DNA from: a virus
Length of the DNA: 64,000 nt
Virus record (IMG/VR): IMGVR_UViG_3300032163_000003
Location: 46,070 to 110,069 of that record
Reading direction: 5' to 3' (one strand)
Notes under the pieces: model-generated
What the model was told of the DNA's origin: nothing
Seen by the model: only the letters and a program-made list of their open reading frames with translations
Databases searched by the model: none
In this document: positions 26,105 through 44,600 of the stretch, one piece after another
Numbering within the stretch: the stretch's first letter is position 1
How the letters are laid out: each line of letters opens with the position of its first letter
Program-made: the position numbers and the translations under genes

Positions 26105-26182
26105 TGGTAGCCCATGCAGGACTCGAACCTGCGACCTAGGACTTAGAAGGACCTTGCTCTATTCCACCTGAGCTAATGGGTC
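26105..26182 (-). tRNA. tRNA-Arg(UCU), with stem mismatches
   Basis: AGGTC-CT TCT AA-GTCCT; acceptor GACCCAT/ATGGGCT; ACCA. Confidence 0.8.
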
Positions 26183-26863
26183 TTTTCTATGAGTCTTTAA
26201 GTTAAACTTATAGTTCTTAGTTAAAGAATGATGATTTGGACACAAAAGTTCTAAATTTTCTTCTATTGAACTAAATCTATTTCCATCTATATGATGTAGT
26301 TCTAGAGGAATTAGATTAGTAAATTGATTTACTTCTGACCATCCACATACAGAACATTTATTGTTGTATTTTTTTAGGATGTACTTCCTTATAAGAGTAG
26401 AAGCACCACCTGATGTATTTCCAGAAATTTTTCCGTCTTTCCATTTACTTATATATTCTTTATATTTATACTCACTATGACAAAAACCATTGCAAAACTG
26501 TTTCATCCACTTAATAACTTTCCCGCAATTTTTACAGTAGCTTATTCTAAAAAATTTTGGTATTCTATTTTTGTTGTTATAGAAAGCAGCACATGTACTA
26601 TTACAAAATTTTTTATTGTGGTTTATTTCCTTGTTACACCATAGGCAATATTCTATCGTACATGTTTTTTTATGAAGAGGAAAAGCCATTGATCCAACTG
26701 TCTTATTACACACCGGACATAAAACTCTAGGTTTGGATTTAAGCGAGATTGAACTTCGATTTCTTTTTCCTGGACATTTATTAATACTATTACTACAACA
26801 TCGTTTCTTTCCAATTTTAAACTTTGATTCTTGACCACATCCGTATTCGCATAACATATACAT
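26159..26863 (-). CDS. HNH homing endonuclease with CxYGCG module; stop inside tRNA-Arg D-loop
   Basis: MLCEYGCGQES; LELHHIDGN...NLELLCPNHH; ends DPLAQVE*. Confidence 0.85.
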   Translation of the reverse strand: MYMLCEYGCGQESKFKIGKKRCCSNSINKCPGKRNRSSISLKSKPRVLCPVCNKTVGSMAFPLHKKTCTIEYCLWCNKEINHNKKFCNSTCAAFYNNKNRIPKFFRISYCKNCGKVIKWMKQFCNGFCHSEYKYKEYISKWKDGKISGNTSGGASTLIRKYILKKYNNKCSVCGWSEVNQFTNLIPLELHHIDGNRFSSIEENLELLCPNHHSLTKNYKFNLKTHRKDPLAQVE

Positions 26864-27231: not shown

Positions 27232-27247
27232 TTATTTCTCCCAAGAG

Positions 27248-27319: not shown

Positions 27320-27326
27320 ATTTGGC

Positions 27327-28411: not shown

Positions 28412-28817
28412 TAAATTAATGTTTCTACAAATTTTAAAACCTTAATTTTTCTTTCTTTACACTCTTTTTCCCAAGAAGAAATCCTTTCTTTAAACACATC
28501 TCTTAAAGCTGCTTTCGCTTCTCCCACAGAAGAGAATTGATATTTATATGCATTTCCCCTACCGTTTGACAAAATAAATACTTTTTGTTTAGTAATTTTA
28601 TTTGTCGCTTCTATTATGTCAAAATATTCAAGACCATTATTGCAAACATTCGGTGCTCTTATTTCTTCAACTTCTTTTACTTCTAAACATTCTTCTACTT
28701 TTCTCGATTACATGCTGGAAGAACTAAGCAGTTGGTGCATAGTCTTTTTGGGATAATAGGTTTGTCACCATATCGTGCTCTGAAATAAGAATCAGAGAAC
28801 GGAATCTTTTTCTTCAT
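28411..28817 (-). pseudogene. Frameshifted CX2CX5C family gene
   Basis: MKKKIP...CTNCLVLPACNREK*; a second frame continues VEECLEV...ETLI* from the A-run near 28700. Confidence 0.55.
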
Positions 28818-28836
28818 TGATATTTCTCCATTATCA

Positions 28837-28912
28837 TGGTGGAACCGGAAGGTATCGATCCTTCGACCTCTTGCTCTTCAGGCAAGCGCTCTACCAGCTG
28901 AGCTACAGTTCC
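28837..28912 (-). tRNA. tRNA-Phe(GAA), A54 in T-loop
   Basis: CTTGC-CT GAA GA-GCAAG; T-loop ATCGATA; ACCA. Confidence 0.88.
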
Positions 28913-28919
28913 ATTTAAT

Positions 28920-29050
28920 TACATGTGATAGGGAGTCCCGATTCTCCACCCCACTCTTTCTACCTTAACAGGTCCGTTCATCCTGTTTATTCTGGATTGC
29001 TTACCAAGCAGACGTGCAATTTATTGATCGTCTCGTACACCACACATGTA
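28920..29050 (-). ncRNA. Candidate structured RNA (131 nt) between tRNA-Val and tRNA-Phe
   Basis: TACATGTG/CACATGTA terminal stem; internal AGACG/CGTCT, TGCTT/AAGCA, AACAGG/CCTGTT; GC-richer than flanks. Confidence 0.55.
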
Positions 29051-29056
29051 AAGATT

Positions 29057-29135
29057 TGGTGCACCCTGCAGGATTCGAACCTGCGAAACCTTTCGGATGT
29101 AAGCCGAATGCTCTACGCAACTGAGCTAAGGGTGC
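29057..29135 (-). tRNA. tRNA-Val(UAC)
   Basis: TTCGG-CT TAC AT-CCGAA; ACCA. Confidence 0.9.
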
Positions 29136-29142
29136 AGTGCTC

Positions 29143-29229
29143 TGGCGGAGAGAGAAGGATTCGAACCTTCGGTTCTTTCGAACGCCGACTTAGCAGATCG
29201 GTACCTTTTAGCCTCTCGGTCATCTCTCC
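29143..29229 (-). tRNA. tRNA-Ser(GCU)
   Basis: CCGAT-CT GCT AA-GTCGG; long variable arm; GCCA. Confidence 0.9.
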
Positions 29230-29462
29230 GGTTTATTTTTTCTATCTAAGCATTCCTCATTCTTCTCAACCTTCAAGTCTTGCATACATATACCAAGATG
29301 GTGTTTCTTTCTTGGGTGGATTATATTCATTATTGTAATCTCTACAATACTTCTCAGCTTCTGCTTTAGTTTTAAACTCTATAGTTTCGTCAACTCTTTG
29401 TCCCAACCAGCTTCAGATTCGATGATAAATACTTTTACCTTTTTCAATATTCCCCTTTGAGA

Positions 29463-29592
29463 TATAGCCTCAAACCCTAATAGTCTTTTGGGCGTCCTTT
29501 GTTAAGGTCTACTTTCTTAAACCGACCCTGCGCAAGGTGTCAGCAAAATACTATTTCGAACCTACTCAGAGTGTTTGGCGTCTGAGGCTATA
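29463..29592 (-). ncRNA. Candidate structured RNA (130 nt) downstream of tRNA-Ala
   Basis: 13-bp terminal stem TATAGCCTCAGAC/GTTTGAGGCTATA; inner AATAGT.TTTTG/CAAAA.ACTATT; two apical hairpins. Confidence 0.7.
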
Positions 29593-29604
29593 CAATATTT
29601 TCGA

Positions 29605-29680
29605 TGGTGGAGGCGGACGGGGTCGAACCGTCGCTTTCTTGCGTGCAAGACAAGTGTTTTCCCAGTTAAACTACGCCCCC
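29605..29680 (-). tRNA. tRNA-Ala(UGC)
   Basis: G3:U70; CT TGC AC loop; ACCA. Confidence 0.92.
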
Positions 29681-29690
29681 GTTTTATTTT

Positions 29691-29765
29691 TGGCTGAGGG
29701 AGAAGGGGTCGAACCTTCAATTTCTCGGGTCAAAGCCGGGCGTCTTTCCATTAGACAATCCCTCA
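29691..29765 (-). tRNA. tRNA-Gln(UUG)
   Basis: U1:A72; CT TTG AC loop; GCCA. Confidence 0.9.
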
Positions 29766-29794
29766 ATAAATTTTTAACATAGTTATCTACTTGT

Positions 29795-29818
29795 TCTTTC
29801 CCATTAGACGACCGGTCA
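29795..29818 (-). pseudogene. Orphan 5' fragment of a tRNA-Gln-like gene
   Basis: TGACCGG TC GTCT AATGGGAA AGA versus intact TGAGGGA TT GTCT AATGGAA AGAC about 30 nt downstream. Confidence 0.55.
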
Positions 29819-30319
29819 GTGAGCGGTTAAGAAGAATTCTGCAAACTCTTCCTTACCAAATCCGTCAAGAAGTTCCCAAAGTTCTGTTCTTGTAATAGAA
29901 TTTTCTTTATCGGTTGCCACAGAACCATATGAAGATTTTCCAGTAGAAAGATCTAAAAGAGTCATCTCTTTTGGATCAGTAGAGATCAACATAACTTCCT
30001 GCTTTCTATCAAAGAACTTTGTTTTGAGGATATATGATTCTTCTCCAAGTTCTTTAATAAACTTTTGTGTTGTCAACCATTTAAAGTTTTCACTCCAGTC
30101 ATTCCATTCATAATCCTCTAAGAAACTTACAACATTTTTAAGAGGAATATCTTTGTCTGTTCCAAATTCTATTGCAAAGTCAGTAAGAAGACCCTTTATG
30201 TCGTCACATAAATCATGAACTTTAATAAGATTTTGAAATGTAATGGGTTTTATTTTTACAAATTCTTGACTTCCGTGGGCGTATCTTTCACCTTGAATTT
30301 CCTTCTTCGCTTTTGCCAT
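29816..30319 (-). CDS. Hypothetical protein
   Basis: 167-aa ORF with AGGAG SD; its TGA is the first 3 nt of the Gln stub. Confidence 0.6.
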   Translation of the reverse strand: MAKAKKEIQGERYAHGSQEFVKIKPITFQNLIKVHDLCDDIKGLLTDFAIEFGTDKDIPLKNVVSFLEDYEWNDWSENFKWLTTQKFIKELGEESYILKTKFFDRKQEVMLISTDPKEMTLLDLSTGKSSYGSVATDKENSITRTELWELLDGFGKEEFAEFFLTAH

Positions 30320-30347
30320 TCTTATTCTCCTTTTGTTTCTTCCTGTG

Positions 30348-30554
30348 TCAATTTCTTTTCATGGATAGAAGAAAAATAACCGCGTAATCGCATGAATATT
30401 TACTAGATCTTAACCAGTTCTCCCTATTTAATCCACTAAGATAATTACTAACTTCGTCAAAATAAGTTGTACATATTGTAGAACATACGGGAAAAACTAT
30501 ACAATTAGAGCAAATTTTATTAATTATTTCCTTTGCTTGTCTTTCGATGTCCAT
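30348..30554 (-). CDS. CX2CX5CX3C-motif family protein
   Basis: CSNCIVFPVCSTIC. Confidence 0.5.
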   Translation of the reverse strand: MDIERQAKEIINKICSNCIVFPVCSTICTTYFDEVSNYLSGLNRENWLRSSKYSCDYAVIFLLSMKRN

Positions 30555-30562
30555 AAATATAC

Positions 30563-31666
30563 CTATTCATAATCTCTAATGGCAATTCCTACTCCAAAAA
30601 TAGGAACTCCTTCTTCGCTAAGTTCTTGATATCTAACAGTTAGTTCTTTACCGATGATATTATTTAAATCTTTCAACCACTCTCTTCTAAGCTCTCTAGA
30701 ACCTCTGGGTCGGACTTTAAGAGTTTTTCCATTTTCAAGATCACACACAAAAATTACACAACCTTCTTCTAATCCTTCTCCCTCACAACCGCCCACGATT
30801 TTGAACTCTTTATCTTCAAAGGTTTTGTATTTTTGTAAGTCTTTTGATCTATGATCAAAGATATATTTTCCATTTGCATTTCTTATAATTATTCCTTCAA
30901 ATCCTTGACTAACAAAAGCTTTATGCCAACCATATATTTCTTTTTCATTTTGAATTTCGACTGTAGGAACTCTTACTATATTAGCTTGATATCCATGAAT
31001 AGCAGTTGAGAACCAGTCATACCTCTCTCGAAAAGTCATACTAGGATCTGCCTTATCATATACCCAGTATTGTAATTGTTTTGTTGTTTCTCTCTCTTTT
31101 TTTAGATTTCTAATTATCTCTTGAAACGACCACCCAAATACAAAAATTTCACCATCCAAAATATCTTCTATATTTGCTGCTTTTGATATATCTGTAGTTA
31201 AGTGTCTTAGAGTAGTAAATTCTTTTCCCCCGCGACTTATGTATTTTATTTTATCTTCAGAAATTTTCTGAGCTAAACATCTCACTCCGTTTAATTTTGG
31301 TTGAGCGAAACATGGATATTTAATTTCACGTTTTCTATCTTGGAACTTTTGAGCAAGCATAGGAAGAATAATATCAGACTTTGTTTCCTCAGTTGGAATA
31401 GTTTCTATGTACTTTTGATCCTTCTTTGAAGTCCATAGAGATTTCGCGTCTGCACAAGCTTGTTCAAATGATGTTGTTTCATTTGACTTACCAATATTTT
31501 TTCCAGACTTTATATCTTTTGCTGATACTATAACTTTTCCATCTACATAACCATGACTTATTTCAATTGCAGGAGTCCCGTAATTATCTATTACTCGGAC
31601 TTTCCATTGTTTTAATTTTTTTGTAGAGCTTATTCCATACAACGTAGGAAATTCTTTTGTTTGCAT
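30563..31666 (-). CDS. lig: ATP-dependent DNA ligase
   Basis: PMLA, QPKLNGVRC, LDGEI, FEGIIIR, LQKYK, C-terminal OB fold ending IRDYE. Confidence 0.92.
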   Translation of the reverse strand: MQTKEFPTLYGISSTKKLKQWKVRVIDNYGTPAIEISHGYVDGKVIVSAKDIKSGKNIGKSNETTSFEQACADAKSLWTSKKDQKYIETIPTEETKSDIILPMLAQKFQDRKREIKYPCFAQPKLNGVRCLAQKISEDKIKYISRGGKEFTTLRHLTTDISKAANIEDILDGEIFVFGWSFQEIIRNLKKERETTKQLQYWVYDKADPSMTFRERYDWFSTAIHGYQANIVRVPTVEIQNEKEIYGWHKAFVSQGFEGIIIRNANGKYIFDHRSKDLQKYKTFEDKEFKIVGGCEGEGLEEGCVIFVCDLENGKTLKVRPRGSRELRREWLKDLNNIIGKELTVRYQELSEEGVPIFGVGIAIRDYE

Positions 31667-31933
31667 ATTATCCTTTCAATATAAACTACGAATAACAGTA
31701 CTGATCTTTTTTCCAATTATAGATTGATCTATTCTACAATTTGCTCTTACATTTTCCCAATCTCTATTTTTTTCTTCGATATATCCACAAGAAGTACATA
31801 CTATTACTTTATCGACTAAATTATTATGTAACCACACCTCTGTAGTTTTTCCACAGTTAGGGCATTCTATGTTATTAATCATCCATCCCATCTTTATCCT
31901 CCACACCACAAGTACAAACAGCCATTTTCACCT

Positions 31934-32119
31934 CTACTTATTCTTATGGTCAGTAGCGTACCAACCAGAACCTTTTAAATGGAAGGTACTTTTAGAAATG
32001 ATTTTCTTCATGTTTCCTAAACAGACTGGACAACATTTCTCACATGTTCCATTTGAATCTTTTTCTAACTTTTCTATAATCTTTCCACATTTAATGCATT
32101 CATATTCGTAAACTGGCAT
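31934..32119 (-). CDS. FmdB-family zinc ribbon protein
   Basis: MPVYEYECIKCG...CPVC...FHLKGSGWYATD. Confidence 0.85.
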   Translation of the reverse strand: MPVYEYECIKCGKIIEKLEKDSNGTCEKCCPVCLGNMKKIISKSTFHLKGSGWYATDHKNK

Positions 32120-32387
32120 TACACCTCCATAAATCTGGAGAATGATTCTAGCATGTTACTTTTATTTTTATCCAATTGAAACTTAGTACAATATCCAAAA
32201 ATAGAAACGCTTAGTTTTCTTACTTGGTTGTGCTTTATATGTAAATATGAATTACTTGAACAAGTTCCAAAAACGCTGTTTTCGACATTTCCTTTTTCAA
32301 AGAAAGAACACAAAGCACAACAATTTAAAACTTTATATCCAATTAGATTTAGTTCTTTTAGTTTATTCTCATCCATTTATAACCTCT

Positions 32388-32470
32388 TGGTGCCGAAGAG
32401 GAGACTCGAACTCCTATGGTTTCCCGCTACTTTCTAAGAGTAGTATGTATACCAATTCCATCACTCCGGC
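32388..32470 (-). tRNA. tRNA-Leu(UAG)
   Basis: CTACT-CT TAG AA-AGTAG; ACCA. Confidence 0.9.
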
Positions 32471-33061
32471 ATCTTAATTTAACATACTCTTTTTATTAAC
32501 CGAACTTTCTTAGCCATTTTAGTGCCTTTTGGCCAAGTGCCACTTGACTTAAAAATAATTTTTCCATACTTCAAATCATTATAACCAAACTTTTGTTCAG
32601 AAGAAGGTTTAAAAACGTCCAGAACTTGAACTGACCAAATTTGCTCATCTTCTGTGTATAATTTAAAAATTTTTGCTGAACGAAGACTAGTAAAAAATGT
32701 TAAATAGTTTCCCATTTTTACTAGCCACTTCGGAGCGGTATTAAATCTATTTCGTCTATATCTTACTAGAGCTTTTCCTTCAACTATACAAGATTTTAAA
32801 CCACCTTTCGGTCCTACTTTTACAACTTTGTATCCTTTCATTATTCACCTCAAACCTGTTATTGTTACATTATCAGCTAAACCAACGTTATCAAATATTT
32901 CTGTGAGTGTTCCTTCAACAGTAATCAGTTTTCTTTCGTTATTTGGAAGTAGTTCACCTGTTAAAGTTTCAAGCAGTTCTATAACTTTGTCTTCATCTTT
33001 CTTGTTTTTTAAAGTCAGTTCTATAATATACTTTCTAATCATTTTTCCTCCATAAAAAATT

Positions 33062-33149
33062 TGGTGCCCGAGACCGGACTCGAACCGGTATGGCGTTTAA
33101 CGCCGAGGAGTTTTAAGCCCCTTGTGCAAACCAATTCCACCACTCGGGC
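33062..33149 (-). tRNA. tRNA-Leu(UAA)
   Basis: AGGGG-CT TAA AA-CTCCT; long variable arm; ACCA. Confidence 0.9.
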
Positions 33150-33490
33150 ATATTTACTACCTACAGTCCCATATTCGATATTGATATTTTTTATCTTTCT
33201 TTTGAAGTTTCTGCGCTTCTAACATAGCATTTTCATATGTTCCCTCTACTTCTTTAATAAATGTCCACTCTTTGTCTTTTCCTTGTTTGCTGATCGGAAA
33301 TTTTTTCATATTATTCTCCTTCAGTAGTTTTTCTACATGTCTAAAAGAAAGCAGAACACAATCCGGATCACAAGAAAACCCATCGCATTCTGTAACGTGT
33401 CCAACAAACTTATAATCCGGACATACTTTCTCTGCAAATTCAACAAATATTTTACATACTGGAGTTTCCATGATATTCTCCTTTTATTTT

Positions 33491-33568
<78 letters not shown>

Positions 33569-33723
33569 ATTTTATGCTTCAAACACATGTTTACATTCAG
33601 GACACGTTCGTTTTTCTTTTATCCCATTATCAACAGCTTTGAATTTATAACCGCATTTAGGACATTGCACCCTACTTATATCAAAACCATTCATTATTCT
33701 ATCTCCTCTTCTTATAAAGTTAG

Positions 33724-33797
33724 TAGCAGTGGGTGGAGTCGAACCATCTACCTAAGCCTTATCAGGACTTTGCTCTAACCAGTTGAGCTACACTGCT
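33724..33797 (-). tRNA. tRNA-Ile(GAU)
   Basis: AAGTC-CT GAT AA-GGCTT; ends A-CTA. Confidence 0.88.
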
Positions 33798-34330
33798 AAT
33801 TTCCTTTCTTCTTTCGCCATCCTGTCATACAAAACTATATAAACTGCTGCTGACAAGTTCGTACAATGGATACTAGGAATAACTATAAATCTATGACAAT
33901 GCCTCAAGAAAGTTTGCGGTATTCCCCCATCTTCAGGACCAAAAACATACACAGCATTTTTTGGATGCTCAAAGTGTACTAGATTTTCAGAATTTTCTCT
34001 TACTTCGACTGCTACAGGAACAATACCTTTTGGAAAACGATTGAAGGGATATTCGTCGCTAATGATTTGTATTTCCTTATAATCCTTCATTCTCTCTTCT
34101 CTTGGTAATCGATACTTTCCATTTTCTGTTTCTAAGTTTAATCTGTTCCCAGTAAAAATCACTGCCTTCGCACCAAAACAAGAACAAGCTCTTACTACAT
34201 TTCCCAAGTTATGAATGTATTTTGGATTGTAGAGAATAATAGAGGGGGCTATATCTTCTTCAAATAGTTCACCTTCTTTTTTAACTTTAATCAAATCGCC
34301 GAACGTAAAATCTTGTAACGTTGCTTTCAT
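33788..34330 (-). CDS. SpoU/TrmH-family RNA 2'-O-methyltransferase; stop inside tRNA-Ile
   Basis: NLGNVVRAC..FG, YVFGPEDGG, TNLSAAV. Confidence 0.85.
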   Translation of the reverse strand: MKATLQDFTFGDLIKVKKEGELFEEDIAPSIILYNPKYIHNLGNVVRACSCFGAKAVIFTGNRLNLETENGKYRLPREERMKDYKEIQIISDEYPFNRFPKGIVPVAVEVRENSENLVHFEHPKNAVYVFGPEDGGIPQTFLRHCHRFIVIPSIHCTNLSAAVYIVLYDRMAKEERKLAV

Positions 34331-34341
34331 TATTCACCCCA

Positions 34342-34773
34342 CTATTTATTAACAAGTATTATCGTTCCGCCATAGTCAATACAAACTTTATTTTCGTATA
34401 TGAAAGAATCATCTTCATCTTTACTATTTCCAACAACATAATGATTCAGAACTTTTCTAAGATTATAATCTTCATCGGGTTTGTGAATCATCTTTTTTAA
34501 CCAGTCTTTCTTTATAACTGAACTAAGTTTATTAATTTCATGATCAACTTCGTCAGTTATAATTTCTATAAATTTTTTTCCTTTATCTATTAAGATATAT
34601 TCGAATGACATAGTAGAAGATGATCGATCAGTACTACCAGAAATCCACATTACTTCTGGATCTTTTAAACATATTTCATTAATTAAGGTATCTTCTTTGC
34701 AATCTTTTGATGAGCAACATGGTTTGACTAAACATGTTTTGCAAACTAAAGTCTTTTTCACTTTTTTCTCCAT
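34342..34773 (-). CDS. CX2CX5C-motif family protein
   Basis: CKTCLVKPCCSSKDC. Confidence 0.45.
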   Translation of the reverse strand: MEKKVKKTLVCKTCLVKPCCSSKDCKEDTLINEICLKDPEVMWISGSTDRSSSTMSFEYILIDKGKKFIEIITDEVDHEINKLSSVIKKDWLKKMIHKPDEDYNLRKVLNHYVVGNSKDEDDSFIYENKVCIDYGGTIILVNK

Positions 34774-34779
34774 TCTTGT

Positions 34780-34855
34780 TGGAGCGGGTAACGAGATTTG
34801 AACTCGTAAGCAACCAGTTTGGAAAACTGGCGTTCTACCATTGAACTATACCCGC
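34780..34855 (-). tRNA. tRNA-Gly(UCC)
   Basis: CCAGT-TT TCC AA-ACTGG; U73 CCA. Confidence 0.9.
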
Positions 34856-34866
34856 TTTAGTTTGTC

Positions 34867-34953
34867 TGGCGGAGGGTGCAAGACTCGAACTCGCAAGTCT
34901 GTTACAACGGTGGGGTTCAGACCCACTCCCTTACCAATTAGGGTTAACCCTCC
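34867..34953 (-). tRNA. tRNA-Ser(UGA) with C33
   Basis: GGAGGGT/ACCCTCC GCCA; GTGGG-TC TGA AC-CCCAC; long variable arm. Confidence 0.82.
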
Positions 34954-35660
34954 TCATATAATTTAATAAAATCTTTTCCATATGTGTCTATTACATACGA
35001 AAATATATTTTTCATTTCTTCTTTCATTAATACTACTAATTTTCCTGGAAATTGTTTAATCTTTTCGTTAGTTTGCTCACATAGAAATGATTTTACTTCT
35101 ATATAGGTATCATCAGGATATTTATAGTCTGGAACATATTTATAAACTTTTCCGTTCCAAAAGTAATCAAACTTTTTAGAATTTCTTTTAAACTGAATTT
35201 TGTTATCTAAATGATAGATAACAAAAGCCAATTCCCAAGATGAGTCACACCAGAATCCTTTGTACCAGCCTTTCTTCCCGATTCCAGATCCTTGTCTGTA
35301 TCCTCCATTATTAGATATTAAAGCTTTCTCTTTTATTTTTCTTCTTCGCTCTTTCTCTTTCTCTTCAGTTTTGGCCATTCCAGTAAGATGTAAACTAGAG
35401 ATTGACTTAGAAAGTTTCTTTTTAACTTCTATACTTCTTTCTTTTCCAAATATCTCCTCGTAATTTTTTCCTTTAAGTGGAGACAATTTTCCTAACCATG
35501 GTTTTGGATGCCCATTTTTCCACTTTGGACATTTTCCTTTTTTCTTTAAACTATCAAGTCTTCGTTTTTCTGGACATTTATTCATACTATTAGAACAGCA
35601 CCACTTTCCGTTCTTAAACTGATATTTTGCTTCTTTTTTACAACCATATAAACATAACAT
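34944..35660 (-). CDS. Homing-type endonuclease: CxYGC module + PD-(D/E)XK domain; stop inside tRNA-Ser
   Basis: MLCLYGCKKEAKYQFKNGKWCCS; DSSWE...YVPDY...YIEVKS; ends LYEEG*. Confidence 0.8.
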   Translation of the reverse strand: MLCLYGCKKEAKYQFKNGKWCCSNSMNKCPEKRRLDSLKKKGKCPKWKNGHPKPWLGKLSPLKGKNYEEIFGKERSIEVKKKLSKSISSLHLTGMAKTEEKEKERRRKIKEKALISNNGGYRQGSGIGKKGWYKGFWCDSSWELAFVIYHLDNKIQFKRNSKKFDYFWNGKVYKYVPDYKYPDDTYIEVKSFLCEQTNEKIKQFPGKLVVLMKEEMKNIFSYVIDTYGKDFIKLYEEG

Positions 35661-35661
35661 A

Positions 35662-35699
35662 TTTTGATCTCCTATTTATTTGTTCTAAGAAGATCAAAA
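35662..35699 (-). promoter_or_regulatory. SD-occluding hairpin with promoter-like motif in the loop
   Basis: TTTTGATCTTCT/AGGAGATCAAAA 12-bp stem; loop contains AGAACAAATAAAT. Confidence 0.65.
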
Positions 35700-35732
35700 C
35701 TTGCGCCATAAACCAGACTCGGCCAACTCTCC
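35694..35732 (-). pseudogene. Orphan 5' half of tRNA-Ser(UGA), broken just after the anticodon
   Basis: GGAGAGT TG GCCGAGTCTGGTTTATGGC G CAAGT TT TGA. Confidence 0.8.
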
Positions 35733-35740
35733 GTTTTCTT

Positions 35741-36058
35741 TTAAGAACTTATAGCTCCTGGTTGTCCTTCTACTGCAGGACCTACAGGTTCATATAAATA
35801 CCAACCAATTAAAATTATCGGAACAACTACTGTTTCAAAAAGAATTACACTCCAGATTATGTTTCCAACAATAACTCTGTACTCGACTTTTGGATTTCTT
35901 TTGTCTATATTAAAAAGACCGTATTGCTGAAACTTATATGTTTTTACAATCTCTTCTTCTCCTTCTTTAACCTTAACCGAAATATTCCTATCAAATCCAC
36001 AAGAAATCGTAGCAAGTAAAAACACTACCATTATTAAACAACAAATAATCTTTTTCAT
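35741..36058 (-). CDS. Putative lipoprotein / membrane protein
   Basis: Signal peptide ending TISC; second hydrophobic segment. Confidence 0.55.
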   Translation of the reverse strand: MKKIICCLIMVVFLLATISCGFDRNISVKVKEGEEEIVKTYKFQQYGLFNIDKRNPKVEYRVIVGNIIWSVILFETVVVPIILIGWYLYEPVGPAVEGQPGAISS

Positions 36059-36395
36059 AATTCTCCTTTCAGATCTTCATCTAAAATTTTGCTTCTTGTT
36101 TTATATCCATACTCGCAAAGCATATTTATTCTACTTTCCATACTTTAACTGAGAAGTTATCGTGAGGATAATTGTGCCATTCTCTCCAGTCGTTTGAACT
36201 AAGATTTTTGATCATTCTCTCATACATTTCAGAAGAAGAATGTTCTTCTTTACAAAAATCAACCATTCTTTTCCATTCAGAAACTAAACGATCTCTCTCT
36301 TCTAGAATAGCTTTTTCAGCTTTTTCTTGCGACGACAAAATTCTTACTACGTGTCCACTCTCACAGTCATATTCTTGAATAATCCAAACTTCCAT

Positions 36396-36827
36396 TTAGT
36401 TTCTCCTCAGTTCTTCTCTTACTTTCATCAAAATTTTTCCTAAATTATTCTCTCCTTTTCCTGTTCTTAAGTCTATTCCCCAATATGTATCATTCCAATA
36501 GTTTCCTTCTTGGAGAATAGAATCTCCAGTGTTTAGAAGCATCTGTTTTAGAACTAGGTTGTTCATAAACTTCTTACGAACTAATTCGTACATAATCCCA
36601 TACTTTATCTCGTTCCATCCGTTTCTTAGTTTTACTTTCTTTCCTAGTCTTTTTGTGTCACCTGGAGTTTCACAAACTAGAATTTGTTGTCTATAATTCT
36701 TGTCAAGAGATTTTGCTGCTTGATATGCGTGTTCCAAAGTTTTATATACAACCTCGTCATAGCTTACCAAAGAAGGATAGAAGTTTGAAAGGAACCTAAA
36801 CTCTTTCTGAAACTCTTTTACTATCAT
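36396..36827 (-). CDS. NADAR (YbiA-like) family protein
   Basis: FLSNFY, EHAYQAAK, LLNTGD..L.EGN.W.D.YWG, G.N.LGKILM.VRE. Confidence 0.92.
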   Translation of the reverse strand: MIVKEFQKEFRFLSNFYPSLVSYDEVVYKTLEHAYQAAKSLDKNYRQQILVCETPGDTKRLGKKVKLRNGWNEIKYGIMYELVRKKFMNNLVLKQMLLNTGDSILQEGNYWNDTYWGIDLRTGKGENNLGKILMKVREELRRN

Positions 36828-37798
36828 TATTTCTCCTTTAACAAATACTTATTCGAAAGCCTCTTCAACCACTTTCTTCCCACATAGTTGTCTAACTGTT
36901 CCTTCTCAGACCTAATCACAATGCCTTCTCGAATGTGACAGCCGTTCCCAAGAACAGTTAATCCATCTGCTAGTTCTTCAATTACTTTTAATGAAAAAGG
37001 TCCTCTATATAGAACCGGAGGTGTCTTGAAATCTAGTTCCTTACAAATAGACTCTACCTCATCCCAGTCAAGAAACTTTCCATTTACCTGAATATCGAAA
37101 ACTATGAAGTTCTGGTTAGTAAGACCATATGTAAGATTCTGTACTGACTTTCCGTAAATCTCTGCGTATGGGATTGCGTCTTCCGAACGCCATTTATTTA
37201 GAACTTTGTCTTCTAATCCATACTTTGTAGCTATTAAAGAATATATGCTTCCACCCGGATGTTTCTTGATATTGAAATGACTTCCAACGTAAAAAACATT
37301 TTCGACAACACCAAATCTAAAGTTGGTTCCATGAATCTTTTCTGTTATGAAAACCTCTTCTCCAACCTTGAAAACGTCTGGAAAGTTTTGAATTCTTTCA
37401 ATGTCTGTCTTGTATGAAAATCCAGCTACGTTAGGAGCATTATCTCCACCAAAACTAACTGGATCTGGTGGTTCGTATTTTTTAACTCCTAATTCTTCTG
37501 TGACATCTTGTCCTTCTATCCAACCTTCCTTAGATGGAACTAGAAGACCCTGACTAAGAATCTTTCTTAGTTTAATAGTTTTGATTCTAAAGTGTCTATC
37601 TCTCAAAAACTCCCATTCAGAAGTTTCAGGAAGGATAGAATCAATTGGTATATAAGCGCCCAAACTTTTTCCTTCGAAGTCAGTTGTTTTTACTACACAC
37701 TGCCATTGTGTTTCACCTACAGTTGCTATAGATAGGGTATCAGCGTTTGGATGCTTTTCAAGTTTGAAAGAAACAACTTTAACTGAAAATTGACTCAT
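36827..37798 (-). CDS. RNA ligase, DRB0094 (Rnl5) family
   Basis: N-terminal HPNAD.L OB domain, SQGLL, TEKIHGTN, REGIVIR. Confidence 0.88.
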   Translation of the reverse strand: MSQFSVKVVSFKLEKHPNADTLSIATVGETQWQCVVKTTDFEGKSLGAYIPIDSILPETSEWEFLRDRHFRIKTIKLRKILSQGLLVPSKEGWIEGQDVTEELGVKKYEPPDPVSFGGDNAPNVAGFSYKTDIERIQNFPDVFKVGEEVFITEKIHGTNFRFGVVENVFYVGSHFNIKKHPGGSIYSLIATKYGLEDKVLNKWRSEDAIPYAEIYGKSVQNLTYGLTNQNFIVFDIQVNGKFLDWDEVESICKELDFKTPPVLYRGPFSLKVIEELADGLTVLGNGCHIREGIVIRSEKEQLDNYVGRKWLKRLSNKYLLKEK

Positions 37799-38297
37799 TG
37801 ATTTTTTCCTCCTTTTTACTTCCCGAATCTAGTCTCATTCTGTGACATTTAGCGCAAGTAGTTATCCAATTTGATTGTTCCATCAAAGTATAATCTTTTG
37901 CGATAGATGTACAATGCATTGATAAAGACTGTTGTGTGTCTTGAATTTCTTCTTCATTTATTTTTCCACATAATTCACAGTTTTGTTTCCCAAACAACTC
38001 TTTAGCTTTGTCATGCTAGTAAAGACTACATCCTCCTTTCCATGACGAATGACTTTCTCCATATTTTCCAAATAAATAGTTATTTTTTCCAGAATTAGAT
38101 AGATTTTTTCTTCCAAGTTTTAATTCTCTAATCCTTCTTCTAACTTCTAATCTTTTAGTTGGGTTATTTTCCCCAGAAAAAGCTTTCCTTCTTTCTGAAC
38201 ATTTTTTGTAATGATCTGAACAGCATAACCTTCCATTCTTAAATTGATATTTTGCTTCTTGTCCACAACCATAATCACACAATCTCATTAAAGTCAC
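37779..38297 (-). pseudogene. CxYGCG-module HNH-like endonuclease interrupted by an in-frame TAG
   Basis: 38016..38297 and 37779..37997 share a frame: SLY*HDKAKELFGK...NWITTCAKCH. Confidence 0.65.
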
Positions 38298-38299
38298 CT

Positions 38300-38779
38300 T
38301 TACATAAAACTTTCTACCATCGATGGTCTATTACTTTTTAAATAATGAGCGATGAGTTTTCCAATTTCCTTCGCTTCAGCTTCAACATATCCGTCTTTTA
38401 TTAAATCTTGTTGAAATCTCAATACCGTCAGATATAAAGCATCTTGACTAATCCACTCTCTTCCAAGACTAGCTAAGAACATTTGAAAGATTTTTGGAAT
38501 TACTACGCCCTTATGCTTCCATTCAATCTCTCTTCTCTTTTGTACGTCTTTTCTCCAGCTGTTTAGATTCATACAACATCCTTCTTCAGCATAGAGTTCC
38601 TTTCGATAGATCTCTCCAAGATTTCCTGGAAGTTGCATGAGCATACATATATATCTTTTTCTATCTTCGTTCCATTCTAAAGCCGGACAAACTTCAGCTG
38701 AAGTATAAAGTCTAACTGCTGCTCCGCATTTAGCTTTGAAGCAGCAGAATCCACATCCAATACATTCATCTATTTTCAT
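38300..38779 (-). CDS. CxxCxxCC (YkgJ-like) Cys-cluster protein
   Basis: CIGCGFCC...CPAL...YIC. Confidence 0.45.
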   Translation of the reverse strand: MKIDECIGCGFCCFKAKCGAAVRLYTSAEVCPALEWNEDRKRYICMLMQLPGNLGEIYRKELYAEEGCCMNLNSWRKDVQKRREIEWKHKGVVIPKIFQMFLASLGREWISQDALYLTVLRFQQDLIKDGYVEAEAKEIGKLIAHYLKSNRPSMVESFM

Positions 38780-38991
38780 TTTTTACCTACGACTTTCTCA
38801 ACCCAGTCCAAGTGTCCGGTCCCATTACATTTTTCACAAAACACCTCTGCTTTCCAAGAAATGTACCCAGAAAATCCAACAATATCAAAATCATGTTTTG
38901 TGTATCTTCCTTTTCCTTTACATCTTGGGCAGTTGTACTTGGGTTCTCCAATAAGAACATCGCACAACCAGAAAATTATTCTCTCTAACAT
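38776..38991 (-). CDS. CxxCxGxG/DW family protein
   Basis: CPRCKGKG...CEKCNGTGHLDWVEKVVG. Confidence 0.65.
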   Translation of the reverse strand: MLERIIFWLCDVLIGEPKYNCPRCKGKGRYTKHDFDIVGFSGYISWKAEVFCEKCNGTGHLDWVEKVVGKK

Positions 38992-39014
38992 TTTCTCCCC
39001 CCTTAGTAATTTTT

Positions 39015-39089
39015 TGGAGCCACCAGAAGGATTCGAACCCTCGAAAGTTGATTACAGGTCAACCATTTTTCCATCTAAATTATAGTGGC
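39015..39089 (-). tRNA. tRNA-Thr(UGU) with C33
   Basis: GCCACTA/TGGTGGC TCCA; GTTGA-CC TGT AA-TCAAC. Confidence 0.8.
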
Positions 39090-39684
39090 TAAACTTTTCT
39101 AAGAATTCTTTTTCATATTTTTCTACTTTTTCAATTATTACTTCTTTAAACTTACAATGTATATACTTATGATGAGTTGGACAAAGAGGAATCAAATTTT
39201 CCGGATTTATATTTTGTTTATTTTCGTCTAAGTGATGAACATCAACAATAAGATTCTCTTCACATATTATGCATTTTTTTTCATGAAATTGAAAGCAAAC
39301 TTCTCTATACTTATACTTTCCATTATCCTCTTCATAGTTTTTGTTGAAAAACCTCCTGGCGCATCTATTAGAACATGTTTCAGTTAAAGTATAATATTTT
39401 ATAGGTTTTTCACAAATTGGGCAAAGTTTTAAATTTTTAGGGTTTAAGTAGCATGTTTCAGAATGTTTACTAATATTGGATGAAGTTTTTTCTTTTTTAC
39501 AAAATTCACACGGAACTTTTTTATATTGTCCATTGCTTTTAGTCCCATTCTTATACATTTGAAACTGACGTTCTGAATTCTTTTTTCTTAAAGATGGACA
39601 TCGTTGATAAATTTCATTACAACACATCTTTCCACTTTTTAGTTGATAAATCCCTTCTCTTCCACACCCATATTGACATAACAT
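39052..39684 (-). CDS. HNH homing endonuclease with CxYGCG module; stop in tRNA-Thr anticodon loop
   Basis: MLCQYGCGREG; VDVHHLDEN..N....NLIPLCPTHH. Confidence 0.85.
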   Translation of the reverse strand: MLCQYGCGREGIYQLKSGKMCCNEIYQRCPSLRKKNSERQFQMYKNGTKSNGQYKKVPCEFCKKEKTSSNISKHSETCYLNPKNLKLCPICEKPIKYYTLTETCSNRCARRFFNKNYEEDNGKYKYREVCFQFHEKKCIICEENLIVDVHHLDENKQNINPENLIPLCPTHHKYIHCKFKEVIIEKVEKYEKEFLEKFSHYNLDGKMVDL

Positions 39685-39763
39685 GGTGTATTCCTCTCTA
39701 TTTAGATCTTTATTATATGTTCTAACTTAAGGAGAAATTGGTAGAGTGCCAGATCTTCAACTC

Positions 39764-39800
39764 TACCAATCAACCGTTCCTATCATTAGACAATTCGGGC
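39764..39800 (-). pseudogene. Orphan 5' half of tRNA-Thr(GGU), broken after position 37
   Basis: GCCCGAA TT GTCTAATGATAGGAAC G GTTGA TT GGT A, overlapping an 11-bp inverted repeat (39737..39770). Confidence 0.7.
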
Positions 39801-40056
39801 TTTTATCTTTTAATTCTTTCAGAAGCATCCAACACTTCTGACAATTCTTTTCCGATTAAGTCACTCGAACTTTTATCTTTTACTTCTGCTAGAGGTTTTG
39901 CGCACCAAGGACAAAACTTAAAAACTTTTCCTGTGTACTTTGTTCCCCAAGAATGAATAGTTGGAGACACCATTACTTGAGCTGATATTATCTGGGGCAT
40001 TCCAATTTTAAAATCTTTACAATCACATTCCATACCCACAGTTTTCTCCTTTTAGA

Positions 40057-40124
40057 AAAGGGTGGGGAGATTTTACTCCCATCTTCTCATCTACCAGATG
40101 AGGCTTTAATTAAGCTACACCCTT
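40057..40124 (-). tRNA. Minimal non-canonical tRNA-like gene, GGU (Thr) anticodon
   Basis: AAGGGTG/CACCCTT, GCTT/AAGC, CTCAT-CT GGT AG-ATGAG, GGGAG TAAAAT CTCCC. Confidence 0.6.
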
Positions 40125-40126
40125 GT

Positions 40127-40202
40127 TGGTCGGGGTGGCAGGACTTGAACCTGCGACATCTCGGTCCCAGGCCGAGGACTCTACCAACTGAGCTACACCC
40201 CG
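40127..40202 (-). tRNA. tRNA-Pro(UGG) with C33
   Basis: C1:G72, A73 CCA; CTCGG-CC TGG GA-CCGAG. Confidence 0.88.
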
Positions 40203-40207
40203 ATAGT

Positions 40208-40675
40208 TTAACAAATCTTAAATCCACCACAATCCAAAAGAAAGTTTCGAAACTCCTTTACATTTTCCTCGCTGAATGGATATTCAACATCGAGAGCCTC
40301 CCTTTTCCCTTTTCCTTTACACCCGTTACATTCCATATCTCCTGGACCAATATTTGGTGGGGGTTGTCTCTTTCCTGTACCTCCACAAACAGTACAATCT
40401 TCTAGAGGAATCTCCTCTAACATTTTGATATACTCTACCTCATACTTTTTCACTTCACCTGAATCTAAAAGTTCTGTGAGTCTTTTACTCAGTGCGAGAG
40501 ACCTAGTGCAATTTAGACCCCACCCATCATTACTATGTCCACCGTTGTCTTTTGAAATTAAGTCTGGTGCTGCTTGTACACAATAGTTCCATAAAGGTCT
40601 CCACCACCAAACATTGTTTCTAAAATATTCTCCAGTCTTAGATTTTGGTTTTCTTCCGTAAACATCCATTCCCAT
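40208..40675 (-). CDS. Conserved-looking phage protein with inserted DnaJ-type Zn finger
   Basis: MGMDVYG...YFRNNVWWWRPLW; CTVCGGTG...CNGCKGKG. Confidence 0.55.
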   Translation of the reverse strand: MGMDVYGRKPKSKTGEYFRNNVWWWRPLWNYCVQAAPDLISKDNGGHSNDGWGLNCTRSLALSKRLTELLDSGEVKKYEVEYIKMLEEIPLEDCTVCGGTGKRQPPPNIGPGDMECNGCKGKGKREALDVEYPFSEENVKEFRNFLLDCGGFKIC

Positions 40676-41099
40676 TATTCATCATCCTCTTTTCTATCAG
40701 TTAAAAGTTCAAAAGATTTGGCGTTCTCCAACGAAGAAGGGTATGAACCACCAAGACGCCTAAAAAATATCTGCTCTCCTTTGATGTTATATTGATACTC
40801 TGCCCAATCTCCGTAATGTTCTATATCACCAATTTCATAATCATCTGAGCAAATTATATTACCTCTTCTAGTACCATTTTTAATTTCTTGTTCTGTCAAT
40901 GAATGTTTTTTAGTTAATTCTTCTACACGTTCTTTATTTAATTCTTCCCTAATGGTTTTGTCTGCGAAATCGATTGAATGTTTCTTAGCAACAACAATGA
41001 TACTTTTCAGACTTTTGTCACATTCAAGAAGATCTATTCCTAACGAGCCAGGATATCCATCCCAGTGGGTAGCAATCATTAGTTTATCATCTATTGAAA

Positions 41100-41336
41100 T
41101 TATTGCTCTTGTTCCAATATCCACGGAATTCCTTTCTTCTCAAACTCTCTAATATTCTTGACTCGACTTTCAATAATATCATAAGAAAATCTAGCTCCAA
41201 AAATTTTTTGAATCCAGTCAAGACTTCCTACACCCCAACAAGTTTGACAAAGGATTCCCATTGGTTTGTTTTCATAACTTTTCAATAAGAATCCTTTGCC
41301 ATTACATCTTTCACAAATTTGCTCGTAGATTTCCAT
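41100..41336 (-). CDS. CxxCxGxG/DW family protein
   Basis: MEIYEQICERCNGKG...CQTCWGVGSLDWI. Confidence 0.65.
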   Translation of the reverse strand: MEIYEQICERCNGKGFLLKSYENKPMGILCQTCWGVGSLDWIQKIFGARFSYDIIESRVKNIREFEKKGIPWILEQEQ

Positions 41337-41341
41337 TATAT

Positions 41342-41695
41342 CTACTCCATAATCTTTTTCACTATCTCGATTGGATCTCCAAGAGTTTTTCTTAGTTCTT
41401 TTGCTCTTTCTTGTTTCTCTTTGTACTTCTTTCTCAGTTCATCTAATCTTTCCTCTTTGGTTCTAGGATATGAATTAAAGACAGGAATTCCTTCTAAGTT
41501 CAGTTTCCATGAATTCCGACGTCTCTTTTTAAGAACATCAAAAGACCACTTTACACCCATAACTCTTTGAACCCAATCAATACTTCCAGCACCAAGACAA
41601 ACTTTGCAGAGGACACCTATCTTTTCGCCTTTACAGTCTTGAATTAGGTATCCTCTGCCATTACATTTATCACAAATTTGGTCATAAATTTCCAT
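41342..41695 (-). CDS. CxxCxGxG/DW family protein
   Basis: MEIYDQICDKCNGRG...CKVCLGAGSIDWV. Confidence 0.65.
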   Translation of the reverse strand: MEIYDQICDKCNGRGYLIQDCKGEKIGVLCKVCLGAGSIDWVQRVMGVKWSFDVLKKRRRNSWKLNLEGIPVFNSYPRTKEERLDELRKKYKEKQERAKELRKTLGDPIEIVKKIME

Positions 41696-41698
41696 GAG

Positions 41699-44600
41699 TT
41701 AATCCTTACTATCTAACCCGATTACTTGTAAATACTTGTCAAATAATTTCACAGATTCGGGCACTTTATCTAAAGTTTCTGGTTTCCTGATAAACTCAGA
41801 TTCAACTACAGAACGTATATAGTCATTCTTTAAGTCTGTGCAATCTGACTTGGTAGTTAAAAACTCATGTAAGTTATATGTTGAGCCATGCGCAATCAAA
41901 CATGCTGTTTCCATTTCACCGCATCTTTGTCCACCTCGATTTTTTCTACCACCAAGAGGTTGTAGGGTTCTTTTATTGTAAACTCCAATTCCTCTTCCTG
42001 CTAATTTGGTCTCAGCAATATGGATCATTTTGAAGAAATACATATATCCGACTGCTATTGGATTTAAGACCCAACGATTAGAAATCGAGTCAAACATCTT
42101 ATACTCTGACGGTGTATTTGTATACTCCAATGCTTTCAAAACCATCTCTGCTGTGGTAGATTCAAACGGTGGTTCTACAACTGACAATTTATAAATGAAT
42201 GTTTCATCCACAGTGGTTTTATTTAATTGTTCTTCGAACTGCTTATAGTACCAGTTATCTTCTGTATTATCAATAATTTTTATGTAATCTAAGATGTATT
42301 TCTTTAATTCTTCTTGAGTCTTTTCTTCTGTTAACATAGTAACCAACTGCCGTTTCAAATCAACCAAAGACATCCCAAGATGTAGTTCAAAGATCTGACC
42401 TAAGTTCATTCTGGATATAACACTCAATGGACTGATGCAAATATCTACATATTTTCCATCTTCCATTCGTGGCATTTTTTCTTTTGGAAGAATTTTAACT
42501 ACACCTTTATTTCCGTGACGATTCCCAATTTTATCGCCAACTTCAATCTTTCTCATGTAGATTCCATACATCTCTACATAAACACCTTTAACTTCTTCTC
42601 CTTTGATTTTGTATTTTCTTCCTTTTTCTGTCTTAGAGAACATATTCAAATTATTCTCTTTTAGGAATTTTTTTACATCTTCTGGTGGTAAATGTTCCAA
42701 CAGAGTTTCTTCAATTTTCTTTTCTTCCTCTAGTTGTTTTTCTTTTATCTGTTCCACCCACTTATTATACTCTGGAATTGACCTGTTCCAATTATTTGGA
42801 TAAACTTTTAAATGAAATACGTACGCTGGTTTGTTAAATGAGTGTTTCGTTTCTTCTTCAAAAATAGACGAAAAGTTAACTGGTCCATCTGGTATTTCTT
42901 TCATGACTGCGTATGGAATATTTTCTTGGATGGCTGCTAGTTTAACTCTTTCGTTCTTATTATCTTCTCGATCTAGAATAGGAAGAGGTGTATACTTCTT
43001 TCTGTCAACACTCAAATCTAGAAGAACTTTATTCGGTGGTATTTCAAAAGACAAGTCAACAAAGTGCACGGAAGTAAACATTTGTTCTTGGACTCGTTCG
43101 GAAATGATAATTGAGTCCTCATAATTAAGTCCATGATATGGCATTACCGCTGTTAAATAGTTTCTTCCAAACTTTATTTGACCATTCTCGCAGAAGTTAC
43201 TTTCCGCTAGAATTTGTCCAGCTTTAACTCTTTCTCCAAGTTTAACATATGATGTCATGTAGTCTATATTTTCTACATGTGTATTTCTTATCGATATGTC
43301 AAAGGTATCATAGTCTTTATCGTCATATAAAAGAACTAAAAATTCGTCGTTCAAGAAGATAACTTGCCCATCTTTTCTAGCTACTTTTATGAACTGAGTC
43401 TTGTCAGTATATAACCGCTCGCAACCAGACTCAACCAATGGAAGTTCCGGTTTTTCTAACATAATCGCCTGTCTCATTTGAGAAGACGCCATTTGTAATC
43501 TGGTCTGGTCGTCATGTTCAGAAAATGGAACCATCGAAACCGGAATGGAGATAGTAGATTTCTCTTCTAGTTCTTCAGAAAATCTAAGATTAGGATCTAG
43601 TTTCGTATTAACTAAAAGGTTCTGCAGAACTCCACAGTTTTCCCTATCTGGTGTATCTACTGGACAAATTCTTCCAAACATTGATGGCCACAAGTCCCGT
43701 AAATGAACCGGAACATTTTCTTTTGTAAAACCATCTGGACCAACTAAACTTATTCTAGTTAGTTTAGATAACTCGTCAATCGGATTGATTGAAAAATCAA
43801 ACTGAATTATATTTGAGACGTTACAATCTTGGATGATTTGCTTTGAATTTACATTAAATTTTGGACTGCTTGATTTGAAGCACGCCAAACATAAGTTAAA
43901 CAAGTTCTTTGCAATTTTGGATAAAACTACATACTCAAAGCATCTAATTCTTTTATTTCTATAATCTTTATCGTCAACTGGATTTGAAATCGCATATAAC
44001 AGTTCTTCTATAACAGAATCTTTATGGAAAAACTGACTGCTCATTAAGTCAATTCTAGGAAGAAGATCTAAGGAGTATATTATTTTCTCCCCCCTTGTTA
44101 GGGGATCGATCGTTGAGTAATTTTTTCCTACATCGGTAATGAAATCTTCTTTACTATATCCAACTGATGATTCGTGATAAACTTTTAAGTCATATAAAAG
44201 TTTATCAGCGATGGAACTAGAATCTGTAATTATTGGCGCCTCAATTTTGTCTAATTCAAATCTTTTTTCAATTTCTTCGTATCCATAATATGCGAATAGA
44301 AGAATTGCAAAAGGAATTTTCTTACCCAAAATTGTTACATAGACGTAATCTACAAAAGTTGAGTCTGGCTCTTTTCTATGAGAAACCATTATAGTTCCAA
44401 CATTCGTTCTTAGTTTAATATCAGCTCCTCTTGTAACAATTGGAATATCAAACAACTGGAAAATTGGAACCTTCTTCTTTCCAGAAACTTTGATATAGTT
44501 TCCATCAACCAGTTTTGGAATCGCCATGGACAAATCAAAGTCGTGATTCCCTTTGCCAAGTAAAATAACTATACTTTTCTTTAAAGTTTTTTCAAGTTCG

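Follow-up and report, generated by a model that had tools for sequence, protein, structure and literature searches.

The final 64 kb of a 110,069-bp virus contig from a sediment phage (IMG/VR record IMGVR_UViG_3300032163_000003, positions 46,070 to 110,069; hereafter, the window) contain, inside a cluster of transfer RNA (tRNA) genes, what is probably the cassette of a free-standing homing endonuclease, lying in no intron, with the anticodon region of tRNA-Ser genes as its target and a replacement tRNA as its cargo. The cassette is composed of four parts, all on the minus strand and read from position 35732 downwards: the orphan 5' half of a tRNA-Ser(UGA) gene (35694..35732; hereafter, the stub), a 13-bp hairpin across the junction (35661..35700), an open reading frame (ORF) for a 238-amino acid (aa) homing-endonuclease-like protein (34944..35660), and a complete tRNA-Ser(UGA) gene (34867..34953) that overlaps the end of the ORF. 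An earlier note, made from the sequence alone, had described a stub ending at its anticodon, a hairpin occluding the ribosome-binding site, a PD-(D/E)xK endonuclease and a new tRNA sharing its first 10 nucleotides (nt) with the ORF, and had read them as a mobile element that destroys the resident tRNA gene and compensates by carrying an immune replacement. The anatomy was upheld. The mobility and the tRNA cargo gained support from relatives, whereas the general compensation and the special status of the replacement did not stand, as described below.

The stub is 39 nt long and corresponds to positions 1–36 of a resident gene. It comprises the acceptor strand GGAGAGT, a D-arm of the GGCCGAG...GGC type, the anticodon-stem strand CAAGT and the loop bases UU-UGA, and it ends at A36 of the UGA anticodon in serine-tRNA numbering. 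This reading of the sequence was supplemented with an nhmmer profile of tRNA-Ser 5' halves built from 56 phage tRNA-Ser genes, which matched the stub with an E-value of 1.1e-5 when the 150 nt upstream of the ORF were searched and of 6.2e-4 when 63 comparable upstream regions were searched. Over its first 30 nt, the stub is identical to a phage tRNA-Ser gene that is intact in viral locus L182, and the 3' end of that gene carries ACTCTCC, complementary to the stub-type acceptor. Moreover, the 20-nt D-arm string of the stub occurs in 34 viral contigs and lies inside an intact tRNA-Ser gene in all 18 of the distinct loci examined. The exact 39-mer has no occurrence in the viral contig collection, and an Infernal search of a slice ending at the stub end called no truncated tRNA, half a tRNA having too few pairs for the model. 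Overall, the stub is a genuine gene fragment and not a chance resemblance.

The replacement gene is a complete tRNA-Ser(UGA) with an encoded CCA, identified by ARAGORN and by Rfam (RF00005). Standard pairs are present in all four stems, together with a long variable arm and G73, and the Rfam score of 41.7 bits exceeds the gathering score of 29, although it is the lowest among the 22 tRNAs of the window. With a slice of 121 nt the Rfam gathering search missed this tRNA, probably through a filter effect, as larger slices give it the score of 41.7 bits. Positions 1–10 of the tRNA (34953..34944) are the last three codons of the ORF plus its TAA stop codon. The gene is the sole tRNA-Ser(UGA) in the 110-kb genome. 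Its anticodon loop has C33 instead of the near-universal U33, as do those of two other minus-strand tRNAs with UGN anticodons, Thr (39015-39089) and Pro (40127-40202). U33 is kept in the stub and in a Thr-like stub described below, and CCUGAAA loops are found also in other phage tRNA-Ser(UGA) genes.

The arrangement recurs among relatives of the nuclease. Homologues of the 238-aa protein number 749 at E ≤ 1e-3, and the comparison set consisted of 80 fetched viral loci encoding relatives plus three GenBank phage loci, yielding 61 distinct 3' contexts. A tRNA was counted as abutting the nuclease gene when its start fell within −10 to +45 nt of the conserved KLY codon. On this definition a tRNA abuts the gene in 35 of the 61 contexts, against a background of 7.7% for such a window in the same loci. 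Serine tRNAs account for 25 of the 35 (19 UGA, 5 GGA and 1 GCU), in loci where Ser makes up 11.7% of all tRNAs. The remaining abutting tRNAs are Phe, Ile, Asp, Asn and Glu, along with one questionable case each of Ala and Gln that appeared only at relaxed thresholds, and the non-Ser cases mostly accompany relatives with different N-terminal and linker parts. The association extends to megaphages (L002 and L003), and in locus L003 (LR756508.1) the overlap itself is seen, the stop of the homologue overlapping a tRNA-Ser-like gene.

A search of phage loci for a 5' half followed by a nuclease gene and a tRNA of the same amino acid, as the earlier note had proposed, found the layout again, with tRNA-Ser stubs in six other loci. 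Orphan tRNA-Ser 5' halves ending in ..TGA closely precede the nuclease gene in L038, L039, L018, L043 and L071/L075 (E 2e-5 to 6e-3), several further loci hold shorter, decayed pieces ending in GTCTTGA, and a junction-like motif is present in 20 of 63 upstream regions versus 12% of the background. In L054, a tRNA-Phe stub precedes a relative that abuts tRNA-Phe. Three of the loci (L038, L043 and L018) additionally contain a 3' remnant, made up of T-arm and acceptor strand, beyond the new tRNA, and in each it pairs 7/7 with the stub of its own locus (GGAAGTA/TACTTCC, AGCGAGT/ACTCGCT and GGGTCGT/ATGGCCC, respectively). Because the remnant lies past the new tRNA, the inserted block in these loci consists of the nuclease gene and a whole tRNA, placed into a resident tRNA-Ser gene. 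Since the three stub/remnant pairs differ mutually yet are complementary within each locus, at least three separate insertions must have taken place, each of them later than the divergence of the resident genes.

These junctions bear on a different history, in which the nuclease gene landed or recombined between tandem tRNA-Ser genes and the upstream gene decayed by an unrelated deletion, so that the stub would be uninformative about the target. Settings of this kind do exist: the nuclease gene lies among four tRNA-Ser genes in L002, a 485-kb megaphage, and is likewise placed between tandem tRNA-Ser genes in L005, and the 3' remnant is absent in the window. Such a history is nevertheless unlikely, given that the break point falls at the anticodon in at least seven loci with different stubs, and that three loci have the halves of a single gene on either side of the nuclease gene and new tRNA. 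In addition, the stub and the new tRNA of the window share the UGA anticodon, whereas tandem sets such as that of L002 do not repeat an anticodon.

Relatives of this phage at the locus itself were sought by aligning contigs of three metagenome runs (X1, X2 and X3, of which X1 is probably the source sample and not independent). A single run, a sediment metagenome, contains the whole stretch. Most of the nuclease gene is uncovered in X1, X2 and X3; such a hole proves nothing, and only two bridging joints were used. Just upstream of the cassette (36396-37798, minus strand) lie a NADAR/YbiA-family gene (PF08719, from precomputed domains) and a 323-aa ORF that reads by eye as an RNA ligase. The first joint is found in a contig of depth 51 from another sediment sample, in which the end of the NADAR gene is followed by 12 other letters and then by 35732, where the stub begins (joint 36414 to 35732); the NADAR contigs of that run are 97.5% identical to the window. 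Given this joint, the stub is DNA of the lineage's own, and the two small ORFs upstream of it in the window are an indel. The second joint (36827 to 34955) is in a contig of depth 5 whose RNA ligase gene is about 82% identical, and which runs from the ligase through 265 other letters to 34955; from that contig the nuclease gene has either been lost or was never there.

The window thus resembles a recombinant between two types of this locus, the nuclease gene marking the seam where they meet, as would be expected from nuclease-triggered repair between related phages. NADAR homologues at 74–87% identity exist, but the best returned by a metagenome scan for close relatives had ≤57% identity. The RNA ligase neighbour has no match in the viral contig collection, and no close relative of the locus was found in the phage genome collection or, by tblastx against this genome, among the fetched loci.

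A seam of this kind could conceivably also arise if illegitimate or homeologous recombination between related phages at tRNA-Ser genes had made the stub, with the nuclease gene as a passenger. In general, tRNA genes are hot spots of recombination, and two relatives from another sample do have two tRNA-Ser types at this locus. We consider this decidedly unlikely, however, as it leaves unexplained both the presence of the same nuclease family at the same kind of junction in unrelated phages and a sevenfold excess over chance of abutting tRNA 5' ends.

The protein is arranged as an N-terminal Cys/zinc module, a helical linker similar in kind to those that bear NUMOD3 motifs in relatives, and a C-terminal PD-(D/E)xK nuclease domain. 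In an alignment of 42 relatives, residues E143, P177-D178, E188 and K190 are invariant and present in the window protein, and several N-terminal cysteines are likewise invariant. The profile of PF05367 (Phage_endo_I, T7 endonuclease I) weakly matches 19 of the 42 relatives (best E 4.9e-6); with the window protein remaining below the profile threshold, it is a distant relative of this family and not a member. Matches to NUMOD3 were found in 7 of the 42. The same N-terminal Cys module of about 35 aa opens at least eight other ORFs of the genome, where the nuclease bodies behind it are HNH, DUF559 or NUMOD3-bearing, and this combination of a shared module with differing bodies is the modular build typical of homing endonucleases.

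The AlphaFold model of the protein has a predicted local distance difference test (pLDDT) score of 87.8. A Foldseek search against the PDB returned no match at E ≤ 0.001, the top rows being all PD-(D/E)xK nucleases with E-values of at least 0.05. Alignment with representative structures placed residues 119–226 on TnsA with a Z-score of 6.3 over 111 residues. Other matches to the same segment, within a restriction-endonuclease-like theme, were the homing endonuclease I-Bth0305I (3r3p, Z 5.5), Bax1, VRR_NUC, Vsr and Hjc, the Z-scores spanning 3.5–6.7 and thus all lying below 8. The consistency of this fold theme, together with the motif, supports the assignment as a predicted PD-(D/E)xK nuclease and nothing closer.

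With such a fold the protein might instead act on RNA, as a phage anticodon nuclease that cuts the tRNA-Ser of a host or rival, the linked tRNA-Ser with C33 being its resistant antidote. The best single structural match is to an RNA-associated RAP domain (Z 6.7), tRNA-splicing endonucleases are among the fold matches (Z 3.5–4.2), and C33 in the new tRNA contrasts with U33 in the stub. One paper (PMC10264068) also describes phage tRNAs whose altered anticodon loops let them evade nucleases of the host. The explanation is very improbable all the same: the stubs and 3' remnants are features of the DNA and require a DNA event, NUMOD3 DNA-binding motifs occur in relatives, and most cassette tRNAs in relatives keep U33, while the fold itself does not discriminate DNA from RNA substrates.

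An intron offers the weakest account. The distance from the stub to the ATG is 33 nt and that from the ORF to the tRNA is 0 nt, leaving no room for a ribozyme core, and group I intron models gave no match at E ≤ 10 within 22000–42000. The acceptor strand of the stub makes six of seven pairs with the new 3' end (with an A5.C mismatch), and its CAAGT strand makes none of five Watson-Crick pairs, and one G.U, with CCCAC of the new tRNA. When the window was searched for a complement of the stub acceptor beside a T-arm, none was found except the new tRNA itself. Although group I introns with nuclease ORFs do occur in the anticodon loops of bacterial tRNAs, a single interrupted gene, with the stub as exon 1, the ORF in the intron and the 3' half within the downstream tRNA as exon 2, is barely tenable in view of these mismatches, the missing ribozyme and a downstream tRNA that is complete by itself. 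The earlier note, too, had argued from incomplete pairing against a simple intron, and on sequence grounds the cassette is not an intron and the nuclease gene lies outside any intron or intein.

Between stub and ORF, the 13-bp hairpin has a folding energy of −13.3 kcal/mol (z −4.1), and 1 of 200 shuffled sequences folds equally well. Its 5' arm takes in the last 7 nt of the stub, the remainder of the structure deriving from the 33 nt between stub and ORF, and its 3' arm contains the ribosome-binding site AGGAG (35673..35669). The loop holds AAATAAATA. ATAAATA is found upstream of 5 of 22 distinct family members, versus 2.7% of background 90-nt windows, and gives a weak hint of a T4-type late promoter in the hairpin loop, the motif being enriched yet present in just these five upstream regions. 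In homing endonuclease genes of phage T4, a hairpin restrains translation from read-through transcripts.

From the observed anatomy and the placement of the family at tRNA 5' ends, from its nuclease motif and fold, and from the recurrent anticodon stubs and whole-tRNA cargo in relatives, we infer the following course of events for the homing cassette. An enzyme of the family would cut phage tRNA genes, chiefly tRNA-Ser(UGA), at or near the anticodon-coding bases, at about positions 36/37. The break in the resident tRNA-Ser gene would be repaired from a donor carrying the nuclease gene directly followed by its own tRNA-Ser(UGA). As the outcome of repair, the resident gene would keep its 5' half, now a dead stub up to A36, and would lose its 3' half; the nuclease gene would enter together with a whole foreign tRNA-Ser, and the phage would retain a decoder of serine UCN codons. 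The old target would then be split, and the new tRNA, which differs in D-arm, anticodon stem and position 33, may escape cutting. In read-through transcripts the hairpin would hide the ribosome-binding site and limit translation, and with the stop codon lying inside the tRNA, processing by RNase P would strip that codon. It is possible that repair synthesis runs leftwards from the shared 3' half and can be captured by the 5' half of the recipient at two places only; capture at the new tRNA would transfer no nuclease gene, whereas capture at the stub would transfer it, so that the stub might serve as a homology arm which the element brings along.

The description as a homing endonuclease draws on three properties: the protein belongs to a nuclease class and has intact catalytic residues, its gene is placed outside introns, and the family combines patchy presence with repeated insertions. 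The patchiness is seen in the insertions, of which there are at least three, in the related contig that bridges the locus without the gene, and in the occurrence of the family in unrelated phages.

Several observations weigh against this reading. The window protein itself has no Pfam match (0 families at E ≤ 1) and no PHROG match, and the E-values and Z-scores of its fold matches are of the modest size given above. No abutting tRNA is present in 26 of the 61 family contexts. The window keeps no 3' remnant and the right-hand junction is undocumented there: either the resident gene has lost its 3' half, or a crossover in the new tRNA or past it has replaced that half. The search for an empty-site allele yielded no intact tRNA-Ser of the stub type, and the depth-51 contig is known only from a joint whose shorter side matches over at least 29 nt. 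The cassettes of L038 and L043 carry Ser(GGA) where the broken gene is of UGA type, so that compensation, as the earlier note had put it, is not general, while the carriage of a whole tRNA by a mobile element is supported by the 3' remnants in three relatives. Lastly, the D-arm type of the new tRNA is common in nuclease-free phage tRNA-Ser genes, and the depth-5 contig continues through a new-type tRNA-Ser into tRNA-Gly with no nuclease gene. It follows from these two points that the new tRNA need not have come with the nuclease gene, and that nothing marks it as a special resistant design. A special immune D-arm was rejected as a candidate, both D-arm types being common among intact, nuclease-free phage tRNA-Ser genes.

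A bolder extension would give the stub a function in the element. It would be a left homology arm that travels with the cassette, the 3' half of the new tRNA being the right arm, and the cassette would be a natural cleave-and-rescue drive, able to enter any tRNA-Ser(UGA) gene of a phage even if no other sequence were shared. We regard this as doubtful. If it is true, such drives would set the pace of phage tRNA gene turnover, and could spread anticodon-loop variants that escape host tRNA-cutting defences, C33 being an example.

Other ORFs of the genome show related features. ORFs opening with the Cys module are located on the minus strand at 21495-22208, 22543-23292, 38016-38297 and 44736-45908 of the window, and at about 19754 and 43002 in genome coordinates (C1). 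Two of them have DUF559 (Vsr-like) domains and one is a 93-aa fragment; a 390-aa ORF with the Cys module and NUMOD3 sits between two large RNA-polymerase-like ORFs. A second cassette at 39015-39830 (minus strand) consists of an HNH ORF (39684..39052) and tRNA-Thr(UGU), the last 12 codons and TAA of the ORF lying within the 5' half and anticodon loop of the tRNA. Upstream, at about 39819..39782, a Thr(GGU)-like 5' half can be read by eye, with the stem strand GTTGA in common with the new tRNA-Thr, and a 10-bp inverted repeat comes next. Searching with a profile of tRNA-Thr 5' halves gave no match to this Thr-like stub. A third HNH ORF (26863..26159, within 26105-26863, minus strand) has the same Cys module and places its TAG inside the D-loop of tRNA-Arg(UCU), in which the acceptor stem contains G1.U72 and an A2.C71 mismatch. 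The 51 nt back to tRNA-Lys show no visible stub.

Two observations concern other phages. Viral locus L216 contains, at about 2495-2531, a tRNA-Ser 5' half whose D-arm is of the new type (TAACCCTAATTGGTAAGGGAG); it is cut off at ..TTGA, beyond which the DNA is unrelated and AT-rich. As no homologue of the 238-aa nuclease lies nearby, another nuclease family may break new-type tRNA-Ser genes at the same place. In the L003 homologue, from a 484-kb uncultured phage, an in-frame TGA (2620-2650) is aligned with a conserved W, which suggests that TGA is read as an amino acid in that phage.

All 22 tRNA genes of the window cluster are on the minus strand (ARAGORN, Rfam). The right-hand neighbour of the cassette is tRNA-Gly(UCC) (34780..34855, minus strand), 11 nt downstream of tRNA-Ser(UGA). 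A tRNA-like gene at 40057-40124 (minus strand), 2 nt after tRNA-Pro, scores 42 bits with Rfam and has no ARAGORN call; its anticodon loop contains GGU and its T-loop is unusual. A SpoU-type RNA methylase is encoded downstream of the cassette, and the NADAR/YbiA-family and RNA-ligase-like genes lie upstream, so that genes for RNA repair or modification are interspersed in the tRNA cluster.

Homing endonucleases usually spare the host gene by means of a self-splicing intron or intein, or through an intergenic position. The cassette would represent another solution, a form of intronless homing whose element supplies a substitute for the gene it disrupts: the damage to the target is permanent, and the nuclease gene is accompanied by a complete spare copy. 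A full-text literature search, which cannot prove absence, found neither the layout of stub, nuclease gene and replacement tRNA nor this nuclease family described. If the reading is true, a large uncharacterised nuclease family (hundreds of members, in phages from 100 kb to megaphages) has specificity for tRNA genes. It would then provide a definite mechanism by which phage tRNA clusters rapidly gain, lose and exchange their genes, and would explain the tRNA gene fragments scattered through them. The break-and-replace layout may be one route by which phage tRNA genes spread and turn over, and the cassette family is a source of testable candidates for new sequence-specific nucleases.

Among known systems, SegB of phages T4 and T6 is likewise encoded by a free-standing nuclease gene within a phage tRNA cluster. 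According to the available portions of two papers, this GIY-YIG homing endonuclease cuts tRNA-region DNA of related phages and drives the inheritance or amplification of neighbouring tRNA genes, and its homologues are statistically linked to tRNA genes (PMC2330249; PMC13096335). Those portions describe neither a stub-plus-replacement layout nor an overlap of ORF and tRNA for SegB. The enzymes differ as well, being GIY-YIG in the one case and PD-(D/E)xK in the other, with no GIY-YIG Pfam match in the window protein.

A closer resemblance in nuclease class is found in I-Ssp6803I and I-Bth0305I, homing endonucleases with a restriction-endonuclease-like core. I-Ssp6803I is a PD-(D/E)xK enzyme encoded in the tRNA-fMet group I intron of Synechocystis, and it too targets a tRNA gene at the anticodon loop. 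There, however, self-splicing introns restore the RNA by splicing, whereas here there is no intron and a spare gene restores the function. Moreover, neither enzyme has a detectable sequence relationship to the 238-aa protein, and the structural Z, for I-Bth0305I, is only 5.5. The mobile ORFs (mORFs) of fungal mitochondria, as in atp6 of Allomyces, are endonuclease ORFs carrying a foreign end of the gene that they interrupt. As in the cassette, the nuclease gene brings a substitute for the displaced part and the resident part is left as a dead piece. The mORF, however, has a protein gene as its target and supplies an in-frame 3' fusion, in contrast to the RNA gene, the whole replacement gene and the residual 5' part seen here.

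The engineered Cas9 drives ClvR and TARE are cleave-and-rescue systems that act in animals by killing non-carriers. They share their logic with the cassette: the nuclease destroys a gene that is needed, and a recoded version of this gene is tightly linked to it. The mode of spread differs, since that of the cassette would go by repair-mediated copying between co-infecting phages. If our reading is true, the cassette is a natural counterpart of these synthetic cleave-and-rescue drives.

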